A DNA stretch of 64,000 bases from contig CALMKJ010000156.1 in the NCBI GenBank assembly GCA_937867305.1, positions 12,011 to 76,010 on the forward strand, written 5' to 3'. The position numbers and the translations under genes are program-made. This stretch comes from an uncultured Ectothiorhodospiraceae bacterium. GTDB lineage: Bacteria; Pseudomonadota; Gammaproteobacteria; JAABTG01. The notes under the pieces were generated by a model. It made no database searches. It saw only the letters and a list, made by a program, of their open reading frames with translations, and was not told the origin of the DNA. Every line of letters starts with the position of its first letter. The first letter of the stretch is position 1. Below are positions 2,298 to 47,632 of the stretch, piece after piece.

Positions 2298-4711
2298 CGG
2301 AACGTCACCACCCTGGACTCGGCTTCCACCATGTGCCGCATCGACACCCAGCCGACGAACTTGCCCACCTTCGGCAGATGCGAAGTCCGGAACGTGGAGC
2401 CACCCGGAAGAGGCAGGTCGACCTGTTGACGGTTCGCCGACCACGGGGTCAGCACCTGTTCCAACGGCGACCAGTGCACCGGGTCACCTGACGCGAGCCG
2501 GTCCGGGGCCAACCGGTCGAACAACGCCAGATCCGCTTCCAGGTCCCGTACGCCCGCCTGGGTCAGGTACGACGTGCGAGCCACCCGGGCCGCGGAGACC
2601 CGCGACAGGACCGTCTCGACATCCTCACCGACCCGGTCAGCAACCCCGACGGCCAGTTCACGGTCACGGTCCCCGATGTACGGCAGATGCCATCCACCCA
2701 CCCCGACCAGGGTCGGGGTGGACGCCTCGTACGCGTCCCGCATCCGTTCCGCGACCATCCGGATCTCCGGTTGTGCGTCAGGGTGGCACCGTTGCGCGAA
2801 GTAGTTCTCCACCGGCCCGGTCCACACCGAGACGTGCATCATGTGCGGTTCCAGCAGCCGGTTCGTGATCGACTTGTGCACGCCCAGCTCCCGCAGCTCC
2901 GACCCGAGCTGGATCGTTGCCTCCCGGTGCAGGTCCCACTTGCGGCGAGCTACCGCTTCGGCTTCCGCGGCAACCGGGTCACCACCCTGCATGCCGGAAC
3001 GTTCACTGGCCCACACGACCGGGACAGCCGGGTGCGCACGAACATCGTCGATGACCTTCACGACAGGTCGGGCACGACTCGACGCCGAGTTCTTGGAGTT
3101 GTGCACGACGATGCCGTCGGCCACGAAGTTGTGCCACGGACCTTCTACTTCGATGTCGTAGGTCATCTGCACTCCCGCGTAACGAATCGCCTTGATCGCT
3201 ACCCACTTCCGGGCGATTCGCCGTGACCTGGCCTTCGGCTTCCAGTCAGGGTGTGGTTCCTTGTCCGCCGACGAGAAGACCGAAAGGTCGTCTCCGTTGT
3301 GCAGGGCGTCGGCGAAGCGGTCTTCGAGGTTGTTCGCATGAAGGTATCGGTGATGTGTGGCGCAGAGCGTGATGAGGTTGTCGAAGTTCTTGGCGAGACC
3401 GACGTCTTTCACCACCGGGACGATGTGATGGGCCACGAGGTCGCTGCCGCACCCTCCGATCTGGCACTTGAATCCGAACTTCTGATGTACGCGGTACGCC
3501 TCGTTCTGTGTCCAGCGTCCGATGTCGGCTCGTTCACTGGTGATGCCACCCTTCCACCAGTGGTGCTCAGCCCCACGCGCATGGCGTTGGTTTGTGCGCC
3601 GACCACGCGTCTTGGGGTTCTGGTAACGCAGACCCGTGTTCCACGGCTTGCGTCCTTTCAGGATCAGCGAGATGTCGTAGGGGATCTTGTGTCGCTGGAA
3701 CGACCGCTTGACCTGGTTGACGGTTACCCCAAGATCAGCAGCGATGGACGTCGCAGACGATCCCTCTTGCCGGCGGGCGAGTAGCCATGCCGGGTCGTCG
3801 AGGCAGGCGGGCTTCTCCGGGGCAACGCGCTTCCAGCCAAACTCGGCGTACGCGCGCTCTACGCGGTGGCGGGGGACGTCGAGACGGTCGGCGATCTGAC
3901 GGATCGTCATGCCTTCCGCCCTCAATGAGCCCACGGTCTCGCGATCAAGGAGCACCTGCCCGTTCGCTGCGAACATCGGGGAGTCTCCTTGGTAGAAGAC
4001 GAGGTCCTCACTGTTGCGGCGGAGGCCGGTGGCCTCTTCCAGCGTGAGCCAGCCCCGGTCTGTGAAGAAGAGGTGGGCCTTCGATGTTGTGATGACGTAC
4101 CCGTCGTCGAACTCAACCGTGTAGGTCTCTTTCTCACCAGACTCCCACACGTCTTTGACGTGTGTGTGGACGATCTCTCCGGTTTCCTCGTTGAGACACC
4201 TGAGCCACATCCTCGAGAGGTTGGTCCGAGTGTTGTATTCGACTTCGGGAGGGTTGGAGTACCAGCGCTTGAAGTCCGCGCCATTGATGACACGGCGGCC
4301 GTTCTCGTTGGACCGAGCAGGCAGGCCGTAGAGGCGAACGGCCTTATCGAAGCCGGTGTAGTGGGCACCGAGAAGCTTAGCCAACTCCGCGGGCCGGTAG
4401 TCGCGATCGTCGACCAGCAAGGATGTGTCGAACTTCCCGCGCTTCCGACGAGAGTGGCGTGTGCCTGAATGCCACTTCCGGAAGAGCTCGTCGATCCGCA
4501 TCTTTCCGCCGGCCGCACGACCGGCCTCAACCCCGTTAGGCCGGTCGAACCACAGCTCGACATCTCCAGCGAGGCACATGACAGCATGCGTGTTCTCCTC
4601 GGCGAGCACCCAACGGTGGTGGCGCTTCTCGAACGTGGTGATCCTGTCGCCGTCGGGACTGATCGAGTCGGCGATCACCTTCGCGTACACGAAGTCGTCT
4701 GACCTGTTCAT
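2294..4711 (-). CDS. thyX: FAD-dependent thymidylate synthase (ThyX)-like protein interrupted by an intein with an HNH homing-endonuclease domain
   Basis: Short N-extein ending ...KRHHRWVLAEENTHAVM, then an intein starting CLAGDVELWF and ending ...VVHN, with Ser at +1. The intein contains an HNH block (HHIVPV...CATHHRYLH). The C-extein has ThyX-like C-terminal blocks (HVSVWTGPVENYFAQRCHPDAQPEIRMVAERM, compared with ThyX ...VVTGNYRAWRHFIAMR...EIRRLA). Start placed at ATG of MNRSDDF, with an AGGAGG RBS and an ATGA overlap with the upstream stop. Confidence 0.55.
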   Translation of the reverse strand: MNRSDDFVYAKVIADSISPDGDRITTFEKRHHRWVLAEENTHAVMCLAGDVELWFDRPNGVEAGRAAGGKMRIDELFRKWHSGTRHSRRKRGKFDTSLLVDDRDYRPAELAKLLGAHYTGFDKAVRLYGLPARSNENGRRVINGADFKRWYSNPPEVEYNTRTNLSRMWLRCLNEETGEIVHTHVKDVWESGEKETYTVEFDDGYVITTSKAHLFFTDRGWLTLEEATGLRRNSEDLVFYQGDSPMFAANGQVLLDRETVGSLRAEGMTIRQIADRLDVPRHRVERAYAEFGWKRVAPEKPACLDDPAWLLARRQEGSSATSIAADLGVTVNQVKRSFQRHKIPYDISLILKGRKPWNTGLRYQNPKTRGRRTNQRHARGAEHHWWKGGITSERADIGRWTQNEAYRVHQKFGFKCQIGGCGSDLVAHHIVPVVKDVGLAKNFDNLITLCATHHRYLHANNLEDRFADALHNGDDLSVFSSADKEPHPDWKPKARSRRIARKWVAIKAIRYAGVQMTYDIEVEGPWHNFVADGIVVHNSKNSASSRARPVVKVIDDVRAHPAVPVVWASERSGMQGGDPVAAEAEAVARRKWDLHREATIQLGSELRELGVHKSITNRLLEPHMMHVSVWTGPVENYFAQRCHPDAQPEIRMVAERMRDAYEASTPTLVGVGGWHLPYIGDRDRELAVGVADRVGEDVETVLSRVSAARVARTSYLTQAGVRDLEADLALFDRLAPDRLASGDPVHWSPLEQVLTPWSANRQQVDLPLPGGSTFRTSHLPKVGKFVGWVSMRHMVEAESRVVTFR

Positions 4712-5390: not shown

Positions 5391-6216
5391 AGTCGTCCTG
5401 TGTGCGGGAAACGTCGTCGGATGCACCCGGCGCGTTCTCCGGCGTGACCGCCTCCGGCCAACCTGCGGAGAACCGTCGGCCCCAAGCCTTGAACTCGGCG
5501 GACGTGCGGCCGACAGGACCGTACCGCTCCGGTCCTTTGCCGGGCCGGTCGTCGAACTCGGGCCGGTTCTCCACGAACCAAGCCAGGTTGAGTGCGTGCC
5601 AGGCGACCGCGATCATGTGCTTGACCGCCATCTCAGGGTCGTAGTCCTCCCCCATCCAGAACAAGCTCCCGTGCCGCAGCATCGCCGAGTACGAGCTAGA
5701 CCACGGGTACCCGCGCTTCCAGTTGGGTGCGCCCGCCACATCGTCCGGGTACTTCATCTGGCCCCGTCCGTACAGGACGGCCAACTCCCACAACGGGCCC
5801 GCCGGGATCAGGTCGATCCGTGCCTCCTTCATCGACTTCGACCCACCCGAAGCGCTCGTGACCAGGCGTTCGCCGCGCTCCCGAGGAGTCGCCGGTGCAG
5901 GTGCCGGTGCGACCGGGGCGGGAACCGGGCGCAGGTCGGTGCGGTCAGTCGGTGCCGGGGTCGAAGTGACGAACACGTCCACGTCGAGCAGTTCACCGGT
6001 GAGAGCGTCCAGGACCGGAAGCCCGATACCCAACGCCAACACGACCTCGCCGCGGGCGCCACGGGAGTCCTCCCAACGAGGCAGGACCGCGACCGCGTCC
6101 GCATCCGTCGTGATGTGTGCGGCGTACCGGGAAAACTCGCCCCGTAGGTCGAACCCGATGGTGTCCGGGTGCTCCTTGCCGGTGCAGCCGGCACGGGAGA
6201 TCTGGCGCCCCGTCAC
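5377..6216 (-). CDS. dATP/dGTP diphosphohydrolase-domain (MazG-like nucleotide pyrophosphohydrolase) protein; start uncertain (alternative ATG at 5832 gives a 152-aa domain-only protein)
   Basis: Block KEARIDLIPAGPLWELAVLYGRGQMKYPDDVAGAPNWKRGYPWSSSYSAMLRHGSLFWMGEDYDPEMAVKHMIAVAWHALNLAWF matches the phage/plasmid dATP/dGTP diphosphohydrolase N-domain pattern. A long GTG start gives a GTGA overlap; the alternative ATG has a GGTGGG RBS. Confidence 0.5.
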   Translation of the reverse strand: MTGRQISRAGCTGKEHPDTIGFDLRGEFSRYAAHITTDADAVAVLPRWEDSRGARGEVVLALGIGLPVLDALTGELLDVDVFVTSTPAPTDRTDLRPVPAPVAPAPAPATPRERGERLVTSASGGSKSMKEARIDLIPAGPLWELAVLYGRGQMKYPDDVAGAPNWKRGYPWSSSYSAMLRHGSLFWMGEDYDPEMAVKHMIAVAWHALNLAWFVENRPEFDDRPGKGPERYGPVGRTSAEFKAWGRRFSAGWPEAVTPENAPGASDDVSRTQDDYELP

Positions 6217-6295
6217 CCGGTCATCGGACCCGACAGGTACACCGTGTCGATGCCGTGGTGCCGGGCCGGAAGCGGAGCGGCGGCGGGATTCGTCG

Positions 6296-6658
6296 TCATG
6301 CTGTTCCTGTGCCAGAAGCACCCAGCCAGCCGGCCAACCGGTTGTCCGGATGGTCGGCGAACTCGTTCAGGTACACGGTGTGCAGCAGCCACCCGATCGC
6401 GACCGTCGAGGCGAGCACCGTGAACGGGTACGCGGTCTGTGTCGCCACGAACAGCACCGCGAGCCACCGCCACCACCGGTAGGTGCGTGCAGGTGGCACC
6501 AGGAACCACGTCACGACGGCCGGGAGCAGGAACACGGCCAGCATGAGCGCCAACCCGCCTTGCATCAGCGCGAACGTCATGGCCCACGTGACCAACCCAC
6601 CGACGCCAACGCACGCGGCCCAGCCGGCGAGCACCGCGAACGGGTTGCGGGTCGTCAT
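6296..6658 (-). CDS. integral membrane protein (120 aa, 3-4 TM)
   Basis: Track ORF; hydrophobic throughout; ATGA overlap with upstream 6655..6852. Confidence 0.5.
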   Translation of the reverse strand: MTTRNPFAVLAGWAACVGVGGLVTWAMTFALMQGGLALMLAVFLLPAVVTWFLVPPARTYRWWRWLAVLFVATQTAYPFTVLASTVAIGWLLHTVYLNEFADHPDNRLAGWLGASGTGTA

Positions 6659-28115: not shown

Positions 28116-28167
28116 CACCCCAGTGGCCCGGGTGCACGTACCTCGTCATCCCGCACACAGGTGCTTC

Positions 28168-29031: not shown

Positions 29032-29143
29032 CTGGCGGGTCCGGCTACGCTGAGCATCGAAGCCCTGGGGTAACCCGAGCACCCCGGGGCTTCGCCATGC
29101 CCGGACGGTGCACGGGACGTCCGGCCCCGCACACAGACACGGC

Positions 29144-39000: not shown

Positions 39001-39989
39001 AAGCGCGTTCGGCCGGCGTGACTCTGCTGCTGGCGACCCAGAAACTGACCGCCAAAATGTTGGAGGTGGTGCCGGGGTCGAGCGATCTGAAGCAGAACCT
39101 GGCCCACATTCTGCTCGGCAACGCCTCTTCATGGGACCGGCAGTCGGCGTTGACCAGGCCCGAGAATGCTCCGCCGCTGGTCGGCCACGTCCCGAAGGGC
39201 CGCGGCTTGTGGGAGTCGTTGACGTCCAACGCCGTCGTCATCCAGACGTGGTTCGCACCGCAGAACGTGATGGCTCACGAGCTGTCGTCGCGTGGGCGGG
39301 TGCTGGAGGAGTCGGAGAAGGTCGACCTGTCTCGTTTCACGGCGCCGGCTTTGGAGGTCGACGGGGAGGTCATCGGCCCGGCGAACCCGGTGTTCACGGG
39401 TCCGGCGGAGGTCGATGAGGTGATCGAGCTCGACGACCTCGAGTTCAGCTTGGACGACTTGGAGCTCGACCTCGACGACGTACCGCCTCCGGGCGAGGGC
39501 GAGTCACAGGGGCCTGATTCTCCGGTCGCTCCGGCACCTTCTCTGCCGACGGCCGAGTCGGCTGACCCGGATGTGGTGAGTGTCGGTTCGGAGGTCGTGT
39601 GGGACGAAGTAGACCCGTCGCCGTGGACCCCGGAGGTGTCCGACTACGGGTGGGACGAGGTGGACGCGTTCGAGGCGTTCTTGGCCGAGTTCGGTCATGT
39701 CGGCCAGGTGACGTGGATGGACCCGAGGTTGTTGACGCCGGGCCCGGACGGGTCGCTCCTGGTGGACACGGTCCAGGAGATCGCGGATGCGGCCGGTGTC
39801 GTGTTCACGGGTCCGGACCTCCCTGTTCCCACCCCACCGTCTCCCGCTCCGGCGGCGGCGAACCTGGTCGACTTCGACTTCGAGGAGCGTCCGTCGGTTC
39901 CCCCGCACACCTTGCCGGCAACACCGGGGGACGACTTTGACGCGCCTGCGCCGCCTCCGGTTCGCGACGAGGAGGACCCGTTCGCATGA
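36036..39989 (+). CDS. large membrane-bound FtsK/SpoIIIE-family ATPase (1317 aa)
   Basis: N-terminal TM helices (AFVVLLVVTGLVAGLAGVWFGVPGFVFTWFAWVVAAWAL); a single P-loop LLAGTTGSGKSVLAQ followed by VYVIDPIKG; Walker B VVMIDEFTSLMG; acidic repeat-rich C-terminal tail. Variant class-2 motif CGGCACAGGGAAGGC directly precedes the ATG. Confidence 0.6.
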   Translation: MSTARARPRSRSRSAAQQPQGTEAFVVLLVVTGLVAGLAGVWFGVPGFVFTWFAWVVAAWALTPPELTGTDMNRNPVPQGPREERAMRRFNFARSAKWGLVFPFHAFWPGWPVKAAWLAGLVAGLAAFLVPHRAVPGRPPFALNVVDGLFVLVLVTQAAAARRDSVVLGDRSPGVAVDGLRGLFADASAKLPREAAFGLVTAAGLFGGAVGWWYVAPLLGAPAPLGSFAGPLWGVVGLFTGLGAAAGPAWVSASLTHWRTVVAARREWAPCWTMLKHVNPPQLLDRRTVGPAIVDTFRADGSMGSQSYLRLGEKILQARGTSHRIAVHTVPARDPQGQPIPGSADPLGFLIVSWPNDVAPDLTDPSEDPAVLRLYVESVFAWLGEGWGAGPVLDEMTLLTTPDAAAAWMLTLFSAGSLQWDGLRREGIKGMSGYLGCQVLVDHRDPQANKPTGQAVYAGNLTHDPELSGESPVSADDLEYLHYEDEWNGRWAAALKRDSNPPTPYRSTRSTEKLPNGQEIHRMAFVTRQGVDPREFFNLEAKVAATLSGAPFLTITGWQLNNRAGERHAQAFTVFWSSAAVPGNPDRLPPAPPPGRPERGRRGRVAPPSTDAQRWVLGGIVNDAFKAARLARPEVHKVRCLTDPGSRGHIWALSIRLFDGVTLADVRGASQRLRQQMGSEWLRVESAADGVTIVAGVSPSRATVATKHDSDWLVSLDWEQAWLDSKVSGVGGFTPRLVEVGNLPANQQVQVLDFSLPSGLAVGDVKAATSKLETATGNAFVDVRMHPNGKPDMMRVLVCEVSPLPERVNFDFEAADAADGVVFATGVEGEPIVFDSSSSPHALLAGTTGSGKSVLAQCFLYGFLTAPGGADVYVIDPIKGAADFKFAEPYAKAFAVDTFQAAGVLKTVYAEVVRRKNENAKHGASSYRELPDPPLPIVVMIDEFTSLMGQSPVPKPSDDPEMERERALLIADNAARVEVGVLTGKLAREARSAGVTLLLATQKLTAKMLEVVPGSSDLKQNLAHILLGNASSWDRQSALTRPENAPPLVGHVPKGRGLWESLTSNAVVIQTWFAPQNVMAHELSSRGRVLEESEKVDLSRFTAPALEVDGEVIGPANPVFTGPAEVDEVIELDDLEFSLDDLELDLDDVPPPGEGESQGPDSPVAPAPSLPTAESADPDVVSVGSEVVWDEVDPSPWTPEVSDYGWDEVDAFEAFLAEFGHVGQVTWMDPRLLTPGPDGSLLVDTVQEIADAAGVVFTGPDLPVPTPPSPAPAAANLVDFDFEERPSVPPHTLPATPGDDFDAPAPPPVRDEEDPFA

Positions 39990-40540
39990 CGATTCCGAAC
40001 GACGACACCCCGGTGGTCGCTGACGTGTGTACGGGTGACGTGGTCGCCGAATGGTGGGGGTTGTACCGCGGTGACGTGCGGGCCCGCTTGGGTGACATGA
40101 CTCGCGACCACGGGTTGGCGGACGACTTGACCGTGGAGACGTTCGTGCGGCTGATCCGGCATCTGCGCTTGGGGCGTCCGACCCCGGACAACCCGAAGGC
40201 GTGGCTGCGGGTCACGTCCCGGCGGCTGCTGATCGACCATCTGCGCAGGTCGGCGGTGCGCGCTGAGGAGCCGCGGGCCGACATGCCGGTCATGGTGTCG
40301 TTCTCCGACTTCGACGCCGTGGCTCGTTCGGAGGAGGCGCGTGCGTGGCTCGATACACTCGACCCGAGACAGCGCACGATCATGGAGCTGCGCGACTTCC
40401 ACGACCTTTCGACCGCCGAAGTGGCCGGCATCTTGGGGATGACGGAGCAGGCGGTTCGGTCGGCCCGCCACAAGGCGGTGGTCCATCTGCGTGGGCGAGG
40501 TGCCCCGCACCGTGACGTTGCCGAGGAGGCGAGCGCGTGA
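39986..40540 (+). CDS. ECF-type sigma-70 family sigma factor
   Basis: Region 2 (DLTVETFVRLIRHLRLGRPTPDNPKAWLRVTSRRLLIDHLRR) and region 4 (LDPRQRTIMELRDFHDLSTAEVAGILGMTEQAVRSARHKA); ATGA overlap with the upstream gene. Confidence 0.6.
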   Translation: MTIPNDDTPVVADVCTGDVVAEWWGLYRGDVRARLGDMTRDHGLADDLTVETFVRLIRHLRLGRPTPDNPKAWLRVTSRRLLIDHLRRSAVRAEEPRADMPVMVSFSDFDAVARSEEARAWLDTLDPRQRTIMELRDFHDLSTAEVAGILGMTEQAVRSARHKAVVHLRGRGAPHRDVAEEASA

Positions 40541-41602: not shown

Positions 41603-41649
41603 ACCTGTTCTGTGTGCGGGGCCGGCTGTTGCGTGCACCTTGCTCTGGT

Positions 41650-42455: not shown

Positions 42456-42528
42456 TGTGTGCGGGTCCGGCGGGTTGGTGCACCCGGCCGGGTGTCGATC
42501 GGTTCGGCTTCGTCCCCGCACACCATGC
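42456..42528. promoter_or_regulatory. divergent control region: minus-oriented class-1 motif for 41650..42447 and plus-oriented CCCCGCACACC for 42533..43543, sharing a central GGTGCACC palindrome
   Basis: Seen directly in the 85-bp intergenic space between the two divergent start codons. Confidence 0.4.
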
Positions 42529-43597: not shown

Positions 43598-44234
43598 TCA
43601 TCGGAGGAGTGGGTCGAGCCGGCCGGCGAGGGCTTTCGTCATGGACGACCTGACCCCGCCGGGGCCTTTCACTTCGTCGCGCCACCCGGTCCACGTCCAG
43701 GTACGGAACTCGTCGAACGTGTCGGCTCGTCCGGCGTTGACCTGCCGGTGGGCCGTCTCCCGGTTCCGGGTGTCGAGTTCGGCGGTGAGCCGTTCCCAGG
43801 CGACGGTCCGGTTCTGGTGCTGGGACCGTTCTTCGGTGGCGGTGACGACGATGCCGGTCGGCAGGTGGGTCAGCCGGACCGCGGAGTCGGTCTTGTTGCG
43901 GTGTTGCCCGCCGGCGCCGGACGCCCGGTACGTGTCGATTCGGACCTCTCGTTTGTCCAGGTGCACGGGGACCGGGGTGCGGTCGTCGTCGAAGAAGACG
44001 ACGGTGACCAGGGAGGAGTGGCGACGTCCGCGTTTCTCGGTGTCGGGTACCCGTTGGACACGGTGCGACCCGGCGAGCGCACGGTAGGCGGGGTCAAAGA
44101 CGGTGGAGGTGGAACGCGCCACCCTCGAACCGGGGCGTGGCCCGGGCGTGCTTGCCGATCGCGTCGGCCAGTTCTTGTGCGAACGCGGCAGCGTCCGCTC
44201 CACCCTCACCGGGGTGGATCTCCATGCGGGGCAT
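43598..44234 (-). CDS. peptide-chain release factor homologue (GGQ domain; lacks RF domain 1, PrfH/RF2-like) encoded in two frames joined at a CTT TGA C +1 frameshift site
   Basis: Frame A (44234 down to about 44094): [46 protein letters not shown], then stop. Frame B continues as [16 protein letters not shown]...RRHSSLVTV...[41 protein letters not shown]... to 43598. The junction heptamer CTTTGAC equals the prfB shift site. GAAGGGAGGG RBS and class-2 motif upstream. Confidence 0.5.
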
Positions 44235-44296
44235 GATGCCCTCCCTTCGTTGTCGTCTCCTGCCTGTGCCACCACCGTGTGACCGGGTGGCTGAGG

Positions 44297-44602
44297 TCAG
44301 CCTTCGCCGGGTTCCGCGACGAGTTTCATCGCGGCGTACAGGTCCAGCCAGGAGGCGAGATCCCCGTCCGTCTCGTCGGCGAGTCGCCGCCGGCATTCGT
44401 CGACTTCGGCGAGGAAGTGGTCTTCGGCGCGTCCGGCTGCGTAGCGCCACTGTTCGCCGTGGACCTGGTCGCCGGCGGCTTCGGCGCGTTCGGCTCGCGA
44501 CAGGAACCGCGCGGCCACCGACGCGTGCCGGGTCACCTCGGTCGCGAGCTTGTAGTTGTCGAGGTTCTTGGTCCTGTCGGTGATGGCTCGTTGTGTGCTC
44601 AT
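44297..44602 (-). CDS. hypothetical protein (101 aa)
   Basis: Internal ATG of track ORF 44297..44773, just after a class-1 motif. Confidence 0.45.
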   Translation of the reverse strand: MSTQRAITDRTKNLDNYKLATEVTRHASVAARFLSRAERAEAAGDQVHGEQWRYAAGRAEDHFLAEVDECRRRLADETDGDLASWLDLYAAMKLVAEPGEG

Positions 44603-44689
44603 GATGTTCCTGTGTGCGGGGAGACCCGGGCCGTGCACCCGTGGTCGGCTACGTTGAAGCGAGCACCCGTCAACGTGAAGGAGTTCCTT

Positions 44690-44929
44690 GTGGCTCAGGT
44701 CGAACATGTCGTCCTCGAATGCGACCTGTGCGGGGTTGAGGGTCCGCAGGACGGGCCGGGAGTGCATGAGCATTCACTCGCGTTCGATGGCCGGGCCGCC
44801 CGCATCGTCGACGCGTGCGAGGAGTGCTGGGTGCCGTACCGGGGCATGTTGGAACGGCTTTCCGACGCGGGGCGCAGCGCGAAACGGTCCGGCAGCAGAC
44901 GCAACCGGGTCGTGAGGGTGTCGTCGTGA
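44690..44929 (+). CDS. small zinc-ribbon protein (79 aa; CDLC...CEEC)
   Basis: GTG start with GAAGGAG RBS; internal to Arg-rich track ORF 44279..44929. Confidence 0.4.
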   Translation: MAQVEHVVLECDLCGVEGPQDGPGVHEHSLAFDGRAARIVDACEECWVPYRGMLERLSDAGRSAKRSGSRRNRVVRVSS

Positions 44930-45177: not shown

Positions 45178-45783
45178 TCAAGTGCCGGCTTCGGTGTCGG
45201 CGATGAGCCGTGCCACCTCGTGCACGTTGACGGGGGTGAAGTCCCACACGTCCACGCCGACGTTCACTCCGCGCTGGCGAACCGTGTACAGGTTGTGTAC
45301 GTGGCCATGGATCAGCCATCGGCCTTCGTCGCGGACCCGGAACTGGTTGTACCGGGCGTTGTCCATGTGGTCGGCCGTGTACGGGAAGTGGCTGAGCAGG
45401 ACCCGCCGCGGCGTGGCGGACGCCTTGACGGCGGGCAGGGTCAAGGTGGCGACGTCGACGACCGCGGTGAACCCGGCGTCAAGGTAGGACCGTTGGTGGG
45501 CCCATCCGTTGGTTTCGGTGACGGACGCCCGGTCGTGGTTGCCGAGCACGAGGACGTGTTCGCCGTTCAGGGACGTGACCGTCTCTGCCATGCGCCCGTT
45601 GTCGCGGGGCCCGAACCAGAAGTCGCCGAGGTGGAACGTCAGGTCGCCGGGTCCGACGACCTTGTTGTGTCGCCGGACGATCTCGGCGGTGGCGTGCTCG
45701 GAGGTCTCGAACGGCCGGTCGCAGAGCCGGTTGATGTTGTGGTGACCGTGGTGTTCGTCGGCGGTCAGGAACACGTTCGGCAT
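45178..45783 (-). CDS. calcineurin-like metallophosphoesterase
   Basis: Motifs DEHHGHHN, GDFWFG..R, GNHD, HGHVH in canonical order; internal ATG of track ORF 45178..46053; TGATG overlap with the upstream gene. Confidence 0.6.
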   Translation of the reverse strand: MPNVFLTADEHHGHHNINRLCDRPFETSEHATAEIVRRHNKVVGPGDLTFHLGDFWFGPRDNGRMAETVTSLNGEHVLVLGNHDRASVTETNGWAHQRSYLDAGFTAVVDVATLTLPAVKASATPRRVLLSHFPYTADHMDNARYNQFRVRDEGRWLIHGHVHNLYTVRQRGVNVGVDVWDFTPVNVHEVARLIADTEAGT

Positions 45784-46280: not shown

Positions 46281-46312
46281 TTGTCTGTGTGCGGGGCCGG
46301 CCGGTTCGTGCA
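46281..46312 (-). promoter_or_regulatory. class-1 bipartite motif (sense: GGTGCACGAACCGGCCGGCCCCGCACACAG) 8 nt upstream of the 45783..46277 start; an identical 30-mer recurs at about 46551..46582
   Basis: Exact 30-nt duplicate within 300 bp; same architecture as at least 16 other copies in the window. Confidence 0.45.
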
Positions 46313-46333
46313 CCGGTTCGGCGGGCTGAACCG

Positions 46334-46410: not shown

Positions 46411-46942
46411 CCTGCGCGGCCACGGAGCGAGTTCCCCACGAGGGGTCGGCGTGGGTGCCGTCGAGCTGTGCGGACTCGGCGCGCGTACGTCGCGCCTCAT
46501 CCTTGCAGGCTCGCTCTGCAAGTTCTGGTTAGTCGGATCGCGGTGCGTTCACGTTCAACCTGTGTGCGGGGCCGGCCGGTTCGTGCACCGGTCCGGCACA
46601 CGCAGGCTTGTCACCCAAGCGCGACTGGCTCCGGCGGACGCCGTTCCCATCCGGGTCGCCGCGGCGCGTTGAGCCGCTTCCCTGCCTCGAGGAGGACCCC
46701 GCCCCACACACCCCATTCCTGCCGTTGGAGCCCGAGTTGCAGGCATACGAGCCGGGCGGGGCAGGCGACGCAGTACGACTTCGCGTTGGCAAGCTCGATG
46801 ACGTTGTCGGGGTCGAAGATGCGCGGGTCTGCCCCCACACACGCCCATTCGAGGGAACGGTCGTGTGGCGTCGGGTGTTGTGACGCGATCTGGTGCGCTT
46901 TCGTGGCCATGCTGACGTTCACCTCCTTCGGGTTTGCGGGTT

Positions 46943-47015
46943 GTACGCCATCGGGGACTCGAACCCCGAGCCCTCGGATTAAAAGTCCGCTGCTCTACCC
47001 ATTGAGCTAATGGCG
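46943..47015 (-). tRNA. tRNA-Lys: tRNA-Lys (anticodon UUU)
   Basis: Reverse complement reads GCGCCAT TA GCTC AATGGGTA GAGC A GCGGA CTTTTAA TCCGA GGGCT CGGGG TTCGAGT CCCCG ATGGCGT A. It has a canonical cloverleaf with U33, anticodon UUU, A37, a TPsiC loop and discriminator A. A class-1 motif lies 20 nt upstream of the 5' end, with a class-2 motif further upstream. Coordinates are +/-1. Confidence 0.75.
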
Positions 47016-47028
47016 CGTGTTGACACCT

Positions 47029-47066
47029 TGATGGTGTGCGGGGTGCCCCGTCGCGTGCACCCGAAC
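47029..47066 (-). promoter_or_regulatory. class-1 motif (GGTGCACG-N12-CCCCGCACACC) 20 nt upstream of the tRNA-Lys 5' end
   Basis: Shows that the motif also precedes non-coding genes, so it behaves as a promoter rather than a translation signal. Confidence 0.45.
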
Positions 47067-47457
47067 CAGACCTGTGCCACCACCGGGTGGCCACGTGGAA
47101 GAAGGGGCGTGGTGGCTGTTCCCGCAACCGGGTGCAGTCCCTTTCGAGGCCCGCTCCGGCACGGCCGCTAAGCCGTACCGGTCAGCCCACCACTGGCGCA
47201 CATCCTTCGCCTTGCCGAGTTGTTCGTCCTCGCTTCACCCGCCGGTGAAGTCTGGTCCGCTCGGTCGCGACGCCATCTGTGCGCCGCACCCCGGATCGGG
47301 TCCGGGTACTGGTTCCGGCTGCGTACCGGGCCTCCACCAGCAGGCGCTCCGACGAGTCGGACCGGGATGTTGAGTCCCGGCGTGCTTTCTCCCGCGCACG
47401 GCTACGGCCTCCGCCTAGTTCCCCGGTTGCGAACCGGTTCTGCATGAGGTGACGCAG

Positions 47458-47530
47458 TGGGGCTGGGGAGTCTTGAACTCCCGACCTCCTGCGCTTGCCG
47501 CAGGCGCTCTACCAACTGAGCTACAGCCTC
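47458..47530 (-). tRNA. tRNA-like sequence with noncanonical anticodon loop (GGCAAGC, G at position 33) and an A-C mismatch in the acceptor stem; possible pseudo-tRNA
   Basis: Reverse complement reads GAGGCTG TA GCTC AGTTGGTA GAGC G CCTGC GGCAAGC GCAGG AGGTC GGGAG TTCAAGA CTCCC CAGCCCC A. The D-arm and T-arm are canonical. A class-1 motif lies about 48 nt upstream. Confidence 0.35.
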
Positions 47531-47632
47531 TTCAACAGGTACTGCGTGCGGCGGCTCGGGGACCACCTTTGCTGCCGTACAACCTACCTGTGTGCGGGAA
47601 CTCCCGGTTCGTGCACCGTTACGCTGCCGGTC

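Follow-up and report, generated by a model that had tools for sequence, protein, structure and literature searches.

A putative prfB-type +1 frameshift site in the split gene of an RF1-like class I release factor lacking domain 1

The window (the whole stretch of DNA that was analysed, 64,000 nucleotides) codes on its minus strand for a release-factor-like (RF-like) protein whose gene is split across two reading frames. Frame 0 (ORF1, 44094-44234) starts at an ATG (44234-44232), has 46 codons upon translation and ends at a TGA (44096-44094). A Shine-Dalgarno sequence (GGGAGG, 44240-44245, by direct reading) is located 5 nt 5' of this ATG. The last codon of frame 0 is the slippery Leu codon CTT (44099-44097), which directly abuts the in-phase TGA, and the base 3' of the stop is a C (44093). 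Together, they form the shift heptamer CTT TGA C (44093-44099), and the junction reads CAC CGT CTT TGA CCC. The +1 frame (ORF2, 43598-44095) runs from GAC (44095) over 165 codons upon translation and is closed by a second TGA (43600-43598). The fused product of both frames has 211 residues. Upon re-reading of the minus strand, the two frames, the CTTTGAC heptamer and all peptides quoted in the earlier note on this DNA were found to be exact, as was the placement of the shift site 46 codons into the gene (prfB: about codon 26).

ORF1 encodes strand beta-1, the helix-alpha5 tip (G-E-G-G-A-D-A, 44210-44190) and the beta-hairpin of release factor domain 2. The remainder of domain 2 with the PDT motif (44047-44039), domain 3 with the GGQ motif (43912-43904) and domain 4 are encoded by ORF2. 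The ATG of the gene is placed 3 codons ahead of the first beta-strand of domain 2, and the GGGAGG Shine-Dalgarno sequence precedes this very ATG. Thus, domain 1 is truly absent, as had been claimed previously.

The upstream gene on the same strand is contained in a 158-aa ORF (44297-44773 in the ORF list). A promoter-like repeat (see below) fills the 5' part of this ORF, and the start is therefore probably the ATG at 44602, which yields a protein of about 101 aa (MSTQRAITDR..., 44297-44602). It did not match any Pfam or PHROG family. Its gene stops 63 nt before the ATG of the RF-like gene, and the two likely form an operon.

The fused 211-aa sequence matches the C-terminal end of the Pfam domain PCRF and the RF-1 (GGQ) domain. 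When compared to NCBIfam models, it scores 147 bits with RF1, 125 bits (124.7) with RF2 and 91 bits (90.7) with PrfH, in all cases under the cut-off (370 for RF2, TIGR00020; 166.65 for PrfH, TIGR03072). For the two RF1 profiles (TIGR00019 / NF001859), the scores are 147 and 143 bits versus cut-offs of 400 and 423. The RF1 and RF2 cut-offs are missed because domain 1 is absent. A sequence search against the PDB gave the same order (RF1 105, RF2 94, PrfH 53 bits), and in the alignment with Escherichia coli RF1, the first aligned residue is D47, which directly follows the shift. An AlphaFold2 model of the fused sequence has a mean pLDDT of 91.8 (94-96 for residues 1-46). In this model, the pre-shift strand beta-1, helix alpha5 and the hairpin are packed into domains 2 and 4, resulting in a single fold. 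When the model was compared with Foldseek, the best structural match was ribosome-bound RF1 (TM 0.82-0.83), followed by RF2 (0.73-0.78), with PrfH at 0.57 (rank 50).

Several RF1-type determinants are present. These are Q-R-V-P-D-T (a PDT of the PxT type) with its preceding Gln, and GGQ in the form SGAGGQH. The helix-alpha5 tip of the window protein (GxGGxDA) is encoded before the shift site. The motif HRxQRxP-x-T/N is family-wide. The features of RF2 are not found (PDT instead of SPF, domain 1 absent, score below the cut-off), while equivalence to RF1 is partial, as the motifs are present and the four-domain architecture and a score above the cut-off are not. An RtcB domain was not found among the 30 large ORFs of the window. 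The window protein is thus an RF1-like class I release factor without domain 1, and it is neither PrfH nor RF2. The earlier note had correctly recognized a release factor homologue but had proposed a PrfH/RF-H-like protein or a truncated RF2; the family assignment did not stand, since alignment to the three models ranks RF1 above RF2 and far above PrfH. Judged from its motifs, the protein most likely releases peptides at UAA and UAG. Codon specificity is uncertain, however, since helix alpha5 has an Asp where RF1 and RF2 have a Glu, and since many relatives have PxN.

Two other candidate assignments were rejected. ArfB or a standalone GGQ protein is ruled out by the presence of domains 2 and 4. 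A total of 206 mycobacteriophage matches are GGQ-only proteins, and those from cluster C align only to residues 96-151.

Database searches returned about 90 homologous proteins (50-99% identity), nearly all with a query coverage of about 78%, which corresponds to the downstream ORF only. One of them (P0001) is 99% identical to the window protein. In 24 of the 25 informative database proteins, the sequence over the junction reads xFD or xFE, as is demanded by CTTTGA. The spurious N-termini of these database calls (...TVFDP..., ...SVFDP..., ...TAFDA...) represent the +1 reading of N-CTT-TGA-C. The exception, P0045, has CTT TGG in place of the stop. In RefSeq, the copies from Ornithinimicrobium murale and Aeromicrobium are called as a 'peptide chain release factor-like protein' of 126 and 133 aa.

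DNA loci were collected from viral contigs, GTDB genomes and metagenomes. For each locus, the N-terminal motif and the C-terminal homology were located independently, the motif pattern being broad enough to take in the EIRAAEGG clade. This resulted in 86 split loci representing 74 unique split sequences (a false positive, L095, was left out and L035 was added by hand). In all 86, the N-terminal part is in frame 0 and the rest is in frame +1. Frame 0 is terminated by CTT plus a stop codon in 74 of the 74 unique sequences (61 TGA, 12 TAG, 1 TAA), and the base after the stop is C in 60 of them. The counts by stop context, with L095 removed, are 47 for TGA-C, 11 for TGA-G, 4 for TGA-A, 12 for TAG-C and 1 for TAA-C. 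CTT TAG is found in L005, L008, L052, L064, L087, L151, L161, L167, L174, L182, L188 and L192, and CTT TAA in L148. CTT accounts for just 2.8% of the Leu codons in the large ORFs of the window and yet is invariant in 74/74, so the CTT-stop signal is beyond chance.

In the window's own clade, all 16 DNA copies have retained CTT TGA together with the two frames, with only about 56% identity around the site. Each of the six positions of CTTTGA has an information content of 2.0 bits (clade C, see below). A continuous frame, which the earlier note had named as the outcome that would point to a simple mutation, was not seen among these copies, and its description as one release factor homologue joined by a prfB-type +1 site agrees with the conserved two-frame layout. 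Among these 16 are isolate genomes of O. murale DSM 22056 and an Aeromicrobium sp., and the layout is also found in a pilon-polished Nannocystaceae genome. Sequencing error is excluded by the presence of the split gene in isolate genomes. When clade members are compared frame by frame, amino acid identity before the site is 0.47 in frame 0, versus 0.29 and 0.27 in the other frames; after the site, it is 0.58 in frame +1, versus 0.28 and 0.25. Third-position variability peaks in the respective frames on either side of the site, and GC3 periodicity agrees. This pattern in the aligned sequences indicates that purifying selection acts on both halves and switches frame at the site.

A few members of the family deviate. 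L038 (6010-6640, from a Nocardioides MAG) is decayed, with CCT TGA and two further frame breaks; its element carries an FtsK-like gene that is 41% identical to that of the window. L171, with an extra frame break, and the protein P0045, with its CTT TGG, are further examples of decay. Four members have an in-frame TGA (L050, stop at 3034; L154, 5124; L126, 4073; L122, 789). The TGA of L050 and that of L154 occupy the same alignment column, a position that is normally hydrophobic, and L122 is nested in the window clade but has lost the CTT-TGA site. Such members may be pseudogenes, may come from recoded genomes or may use read-through of the UGA as a gate. Proteins of about 200 aa from Chloroflexota (Dehalococcoidia) and Planctomycetota share the signature but have a different N-terminus that is not of the release factor type (...WLALSDEELLAQC...). 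Examples from the Chloroflexota group are L063, L065-L072 and others, which are chromosomal (about 6001-6489). They were rejected as a separate GGQ family, which had been picked up via the shared peptide pattern.

Clades were defined by a distance tree and by alignment to RF1, using RF1 numbering. In clade A (3 unique sequences), the shift occurs past about residue 132, and GGAG(G) is located 3 nt before CTT in 2 of the 3. Clade B (VEIRAAEGGDDA) is the largest (55 unique sequences), with the shift at about residue 144 and with GGAG(G) at 3 nt in 38 of the 55 and at 2 nt in 4 more. The 3-nt spacing matches the geometry of E. coli prfB, and the element is often encoded as Arg-Arg (CGG AGG). Clade C, to which the window belongs, together with its subclade C', comprises 16 unique sequences (including the outlier L128, which aligns near 146), with shifts at about residues 171 and 175; only 3 of the 16 have GGAG(G) at 3 nt. 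The shift site is thus found at three or four distinct positions, clade by clade. The split relatives are not one recent clone, as judged from the distance tree, and have 35-75% identity. Unsplit relatives, with a length of about 222 aa, form a sister group to clade A and are nested near the base of clade B. Judging from this placement and the clade-specific positions, the shift cassette seems to have arisen, or to have moved, on several occasions.

The window copy lacks the stimulator. No GGAG precedes its CTT, the sequence being CACCTCCACCGT-CTT, and RNA folding around the site did not reveal structure beyond that of shuffled controls (z = +1.2).

The window has 68% GC and is read as a conjugative-element-like region of an actinobacterium. 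It codes for VirB4-like, T4CP-like, FtsK-like, ParA-like and ArdC-like proteins and for an ECF sigma factor; these genes bear out the earlier placement of the RF-like gene on a mobile element. The FtsK-like protein is 41-43% identical to proteins from Micrococcales plasmids of 370-600 kb. A megablast search with the region and the surrounding 24 kb against phage and plasmid collections returned no match, and a tblastn search with the C-terminal part against PLSDB returned only ordinary prfA genes (43% identity or less).

A promoter-like motif, GTGCAC-N12-CCCGCACAC, has nine exact matches in the window, while 0.05 are expected (28132-28158, 29108-29134, 41612-41638, 42457-42483, 44612-44638, 46287-46313, 46562-46588, 47034-47060 and 47590-47616). 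The copy at 44612-44638 (minus strand) is located just upstream of the two-gene unit that ends in the RF-like gene. The motif, as read on the transcribed strand, sits in a repeat of about 45 nt which ends at a start codon, and it occurs directly 5' of genes and of both tRNA genes. It resembles a promoter that is specific to the element and gives very short leaders, and it is perhaps served by the ECF sigma factor of the element (39986-40540). The repeat causes ORF finders to over-extend N-termini, resulting in peptides such as HEPAGPAHR.

The two tRNA genes were detected by ARAGORN and are on the minus strand. The gene for tRNA-Lys(UUU) (46943-47016, preceded by the motif copy at 47034-47060) is about 2.7 kb from the RF-like gene, and the gene for tRNA-Leu(CAA) (47457-47530, preceded by the copy at 47590-47616) is about 3.2 kb from it. 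Codon usage in the 31 large ORFs is unusual for 68% GC, with TTG used for 33% of Leu codons and AAA for 17% of Lys codons; these are exactly the codons matched by the two tRNAs. The tRNA-Lys(UUU) likely belongs to the same translation-related cargo as the RF-like gene. The large ORFs of the element stop at TGA in 29 of 30 cases, and no suppressor tRNA was found in the window by ARAGORN.

Among 50 scanned split-gene loci, 34 have tRNA genes within 5 kb, many of them inside arrays of 10-33. In one subclade, four tRNA-Lys genes (two with CTT and two with TTT anticodons) immediately precede the RF-like gene (L014, 3907-4743; L016, 2599-4147; L018, 1398-2373; L048, 5133-5609; L194, 1134-1770). L176, a tRNA-array locus, also has a tmRNA gene (3524-3884). 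There is no protein-coding neighbour that is conserved across the clade loci. Based on the tRNA arrays, the common motif and the lack of a conserved protein neighbour, the RF-like gene resembles translation cargo that is carried by phages and conjugative elements. In the window, a calcineurin-like metallophosphoesterase (45178-45750, minus strand) is encoded 1 kb from the RF-like gene. Homologues are encoded within 3-5 kb of the RF-like gene in L182 (3641-4132), L170 (3547-3945), L008 (8129-8638) and L031 (9147-9314). With only four distant loci, this link is weak and possibly coincidental.

We are fairly confident that the two frames constitute one gene which requires programmed +1 ribosomal frameshifting, that the product is RF1-like and that its synthesis would be tied to UGA termination. 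Anatomy, conservation, frame-wise selection and fold are direct results; from these, the slippage itself, the stop codons that are read, the mode of regulation and the biological role are inferred, with strong comparative support for a programmed shift. After initiation at the ATG at 44234 and translation of 46 codons, a ribosome would stall, its P site holding peptidyl-tRNA-Leu on CUU and its A site the weak stop UGA-C. If host RF2 terminates, a 46-aa peptide would be released. Alternatively, the tRNA would re-pair from CUU to UUU, and reading would resume at GAC in the +1 frame, yielding the 211-aa protein, in which the two halves would meet at Leu-Asp (...AFHLHRLDPAYR). Since the gate is a UGA, a codon that is specific to RF2, synthesis of the product would be tied to the rate of UGA termination. 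It would rise when UGA termination is slow and be low otherwise, resulting in an inverse coupling to host RF2 activity.

Two aspects do not fit easily. The window copy has neither a Shine-Dalgarno stimulator nor RNA structure, which is evidence against efficient shifting. As shifting at the prfB motif was found to be only 6.6% in Mycobacterium smegmatis, versus 52.7% in Bacillus subtilis (PMC12421855), output may be very low. Also, with 29 of 30 large ORFs stopping at TGA, the element has no obvious need for extra termination at UAA and UAG.

The earlier note had called the site autoregulatory, and this is the alternative that survives best, although we consider it unlikely. In RF2-style autoregulation, the product itself would read UGA, or all three stops, and would exert negative feedback as in prfB. 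The signal is the same as in prfB, and a UGA-reading factor would be useful to an element whose genes almost all stop at TGA. The variants in helix alpha5 (Glu to Asp) and at PxN would permit an altered specificity, and if the factor reads all stops, the 12 TAG gates and the single TAA gate would be self-regulating, too. However, all family members have Q-R-x-P-x-T/N where RF2 has S-P-F and Val, and both sequence and structure are nearer to RF1. In addition, TGA gates and TAG gates share one reading motif, which does not fit a single self-recognized codon; in prfB, TAG is found in none of 8,160 genes. With a UGA gate, which is the codon of RF2, and an RF1-like product, the arrangement does not imply self-regulation in the manner of RF2. 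A gate that senses host RF2 activity is thus more likely than autoregulation. The latter is possible if specificity is wider than the motifs indicate, for which the alpha5 Asp, PxN and the 29/30 TGA stops could be cited.

A shift would not be required if two products were made, a 46-aa peptide and a C-terminal protein with its own start at a GTG or ATG inside the +1 frame. This frame is open upstream to 44275 and holds GTG codons, and database calls of 126-228 aa exist, including the 126-aa release factor-like protein named by RefSeq. The N-termini of these calls, however, correspond to the conserved EIHPGEGG region read out of frame and are themselves poorly conserved (0.29 identity), and there is no conserved start or ribosome binding site. 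According to the structure model, the C-terminal part alone would lack strand beta-1 and helix alpha5, the latter bearing a stop-codon-reading element. Also, the invariant rare CTT before the stop would be left unexplained. This makes two independent products improbable.

A pseudogene or an assembly error, with a continuous gene broken by a single-base insertion, is still less credible and would be surprising given the data. A frameshift mutation would leave just such a pair of frames with an internal stop, and decayed copies (L038, L171) do exist. Against this, 74 unique sequences with 35-75% identity, isolates included, keep the split with CTT plus a stop, which upholds the previous argument that the heptamer speaks against a pseudogene. 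Each half is under purifying selection in its own frame, while a true pseudogene, L038, has lost CTT and has extra breaks. Transcriptional slippage, which would restore the frame in place of ribosomal slippage and can serve the same gene family as the latter (dnaX, IS elements; PMC3711429), can be dismissed with equal confidence, as the site has just three consecutive T while slippage of RNA polymerase needs long A/T runs, and as ribosomal +1 shifting is typically marked by an in-phase stop and a Shine-Dalgarno element at a fixed distance.

Programmed +1 frameshifting thus being the preferred reading, it is tempting to go one step further, although we do so tentatively and consider the following possible rather than probable. 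The protein may belong to an overlooked, mobile, RF1-like fifth family of class I release factors without domain 1. Its gate may have evolved repeatedly, as CUU-stop at three or more independent positions and possibly as in-frame UGA read-through. The factor might be made only when host release factor activity drops (phage take-over, stress, attack on translation), and it might serve as a back-up or broad-specificity terminator alongside the tRNAs of the element.

In the literature, surveys of the bacterial release factor families name only four (RF1, RF2, ArfB and PrfH; PMC6514570). CUU-stop +1 shifts are credited to prfB alone, as stated in a recoding review (PMC5009743), in the GeneTack survey (PMC3711429) and in a RECODE-based study (PMC10885494), in whose source database every CUU* entry is a prfB gene. 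According to a reviewer comment in the RF-H paper (PMC1586002), the RF1 family has no mechanism of this kind, and no UAG/RF1 counterpart is known according to the recoding review (PMC5009743). Neither the RF-H paper (PMC1586002) nor a survey of stop-codon-recoded phages (10.1101/2021.08.26.457843) mentions such a frameshift. In the largest prfB survey, the cassette was found in 0 of 2,658 Actinomycetota genomes, and this phylum was proposed to use it inefficiently (PMC12421855). A full-text literature search did not uncover a description of the RF1-like split family or of its recoding, which is not proof of absence. The family, which uses a variant of a known recoding mechanism, is thus apparently unreported and has largely been missed by annotation. 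It is invisible in protein databases because gene callers and RefSeq reduce the genes to C-terminal fragments.

If the reading is correct, an RF1-like family uses the textbook RF2 signal, at several independently placed sites and sometimes with UAG. The same signal occurs in Actinomycetota, a phylum in which the loss of the signal from prfB is reported to be universal (PMC12421855). This provides a natural test case for the question of whether autoregulation is intrinsic to the cassette or whether the cassette senses the efficiency of termination in general. It also bears on the portability of the cassette and on the role of release factors for phages and conjugative elements.

Among known systems, the RF1 and RF2 genes of phages (Lak, crAss-like, Jade) resemble the window gene in that a release factor is encoded on a mobile genome, often near tRNA genes. 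They differ in being ordinary genes that are tied to a code change, with no frameshift reported (10.1101/2021.08.26.457843); compared to recoded phages, no suppressor tRNA was found in the window, and the element uses the standard TGA stop. PrfH (RF-H) shares the lack of domain 1, the length of about 200 aa and a sporadic distribution by horizontal transfer. However, PrfH lacks the canonical stop-codon-reading motifs, which the window protein keeps, and pairs with RtcB (RtcB2), while RtcB is not encoded near the window gene; the score of the window protein is under the cut-off for PrfH, and the structural match to PrfH is weak (TM 0.57, rank 50). RF1 (prfA) shares GGQ, the Q-R-V-P-x-T loop, the GxGG of helix alpha5 and the fold of domains 2/3/4. 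It differs from the window protein, which lacks domain 1 (the part that interacts with RF3 and the L11 stalk), has a deletion of about 12 residues that removes part of the domain 2 hairpin, and has an alpha5 Asp in place of Glu; moreover, no use of frameshifting is known for RF1 genes (reviewer comment in PMC1586002; PMC5009743).

The closest parallel to the gene layout is the prfB cassette. The sequence CUU UGA C is identical, with the stop in phase and followed by C, and most of the functional part of a class I release factor is encoded by the +1 ORF. In most relatives from clade B, GGAG(G) is located 3 nt 5' of CUU, as in E. coli prfB; the window copy differs in lacking this Shine-Dalgarno element. 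Further differences are that the gene is an RF1-like paralogue without domain 1, that the site is in domain 2 (codon 46) rather than in domain 1 (about codon 26) and that it takes three or four positions across the clades. TAG is found at the site in 12 of the 74 relatives, versus none of 8,160 prfB genes. Judged from its motifs, the product probably does not read its own gating codon. Finally, the cassette occurs here in Actinomycetota, where 0 of 2,658 prfB genes have it.
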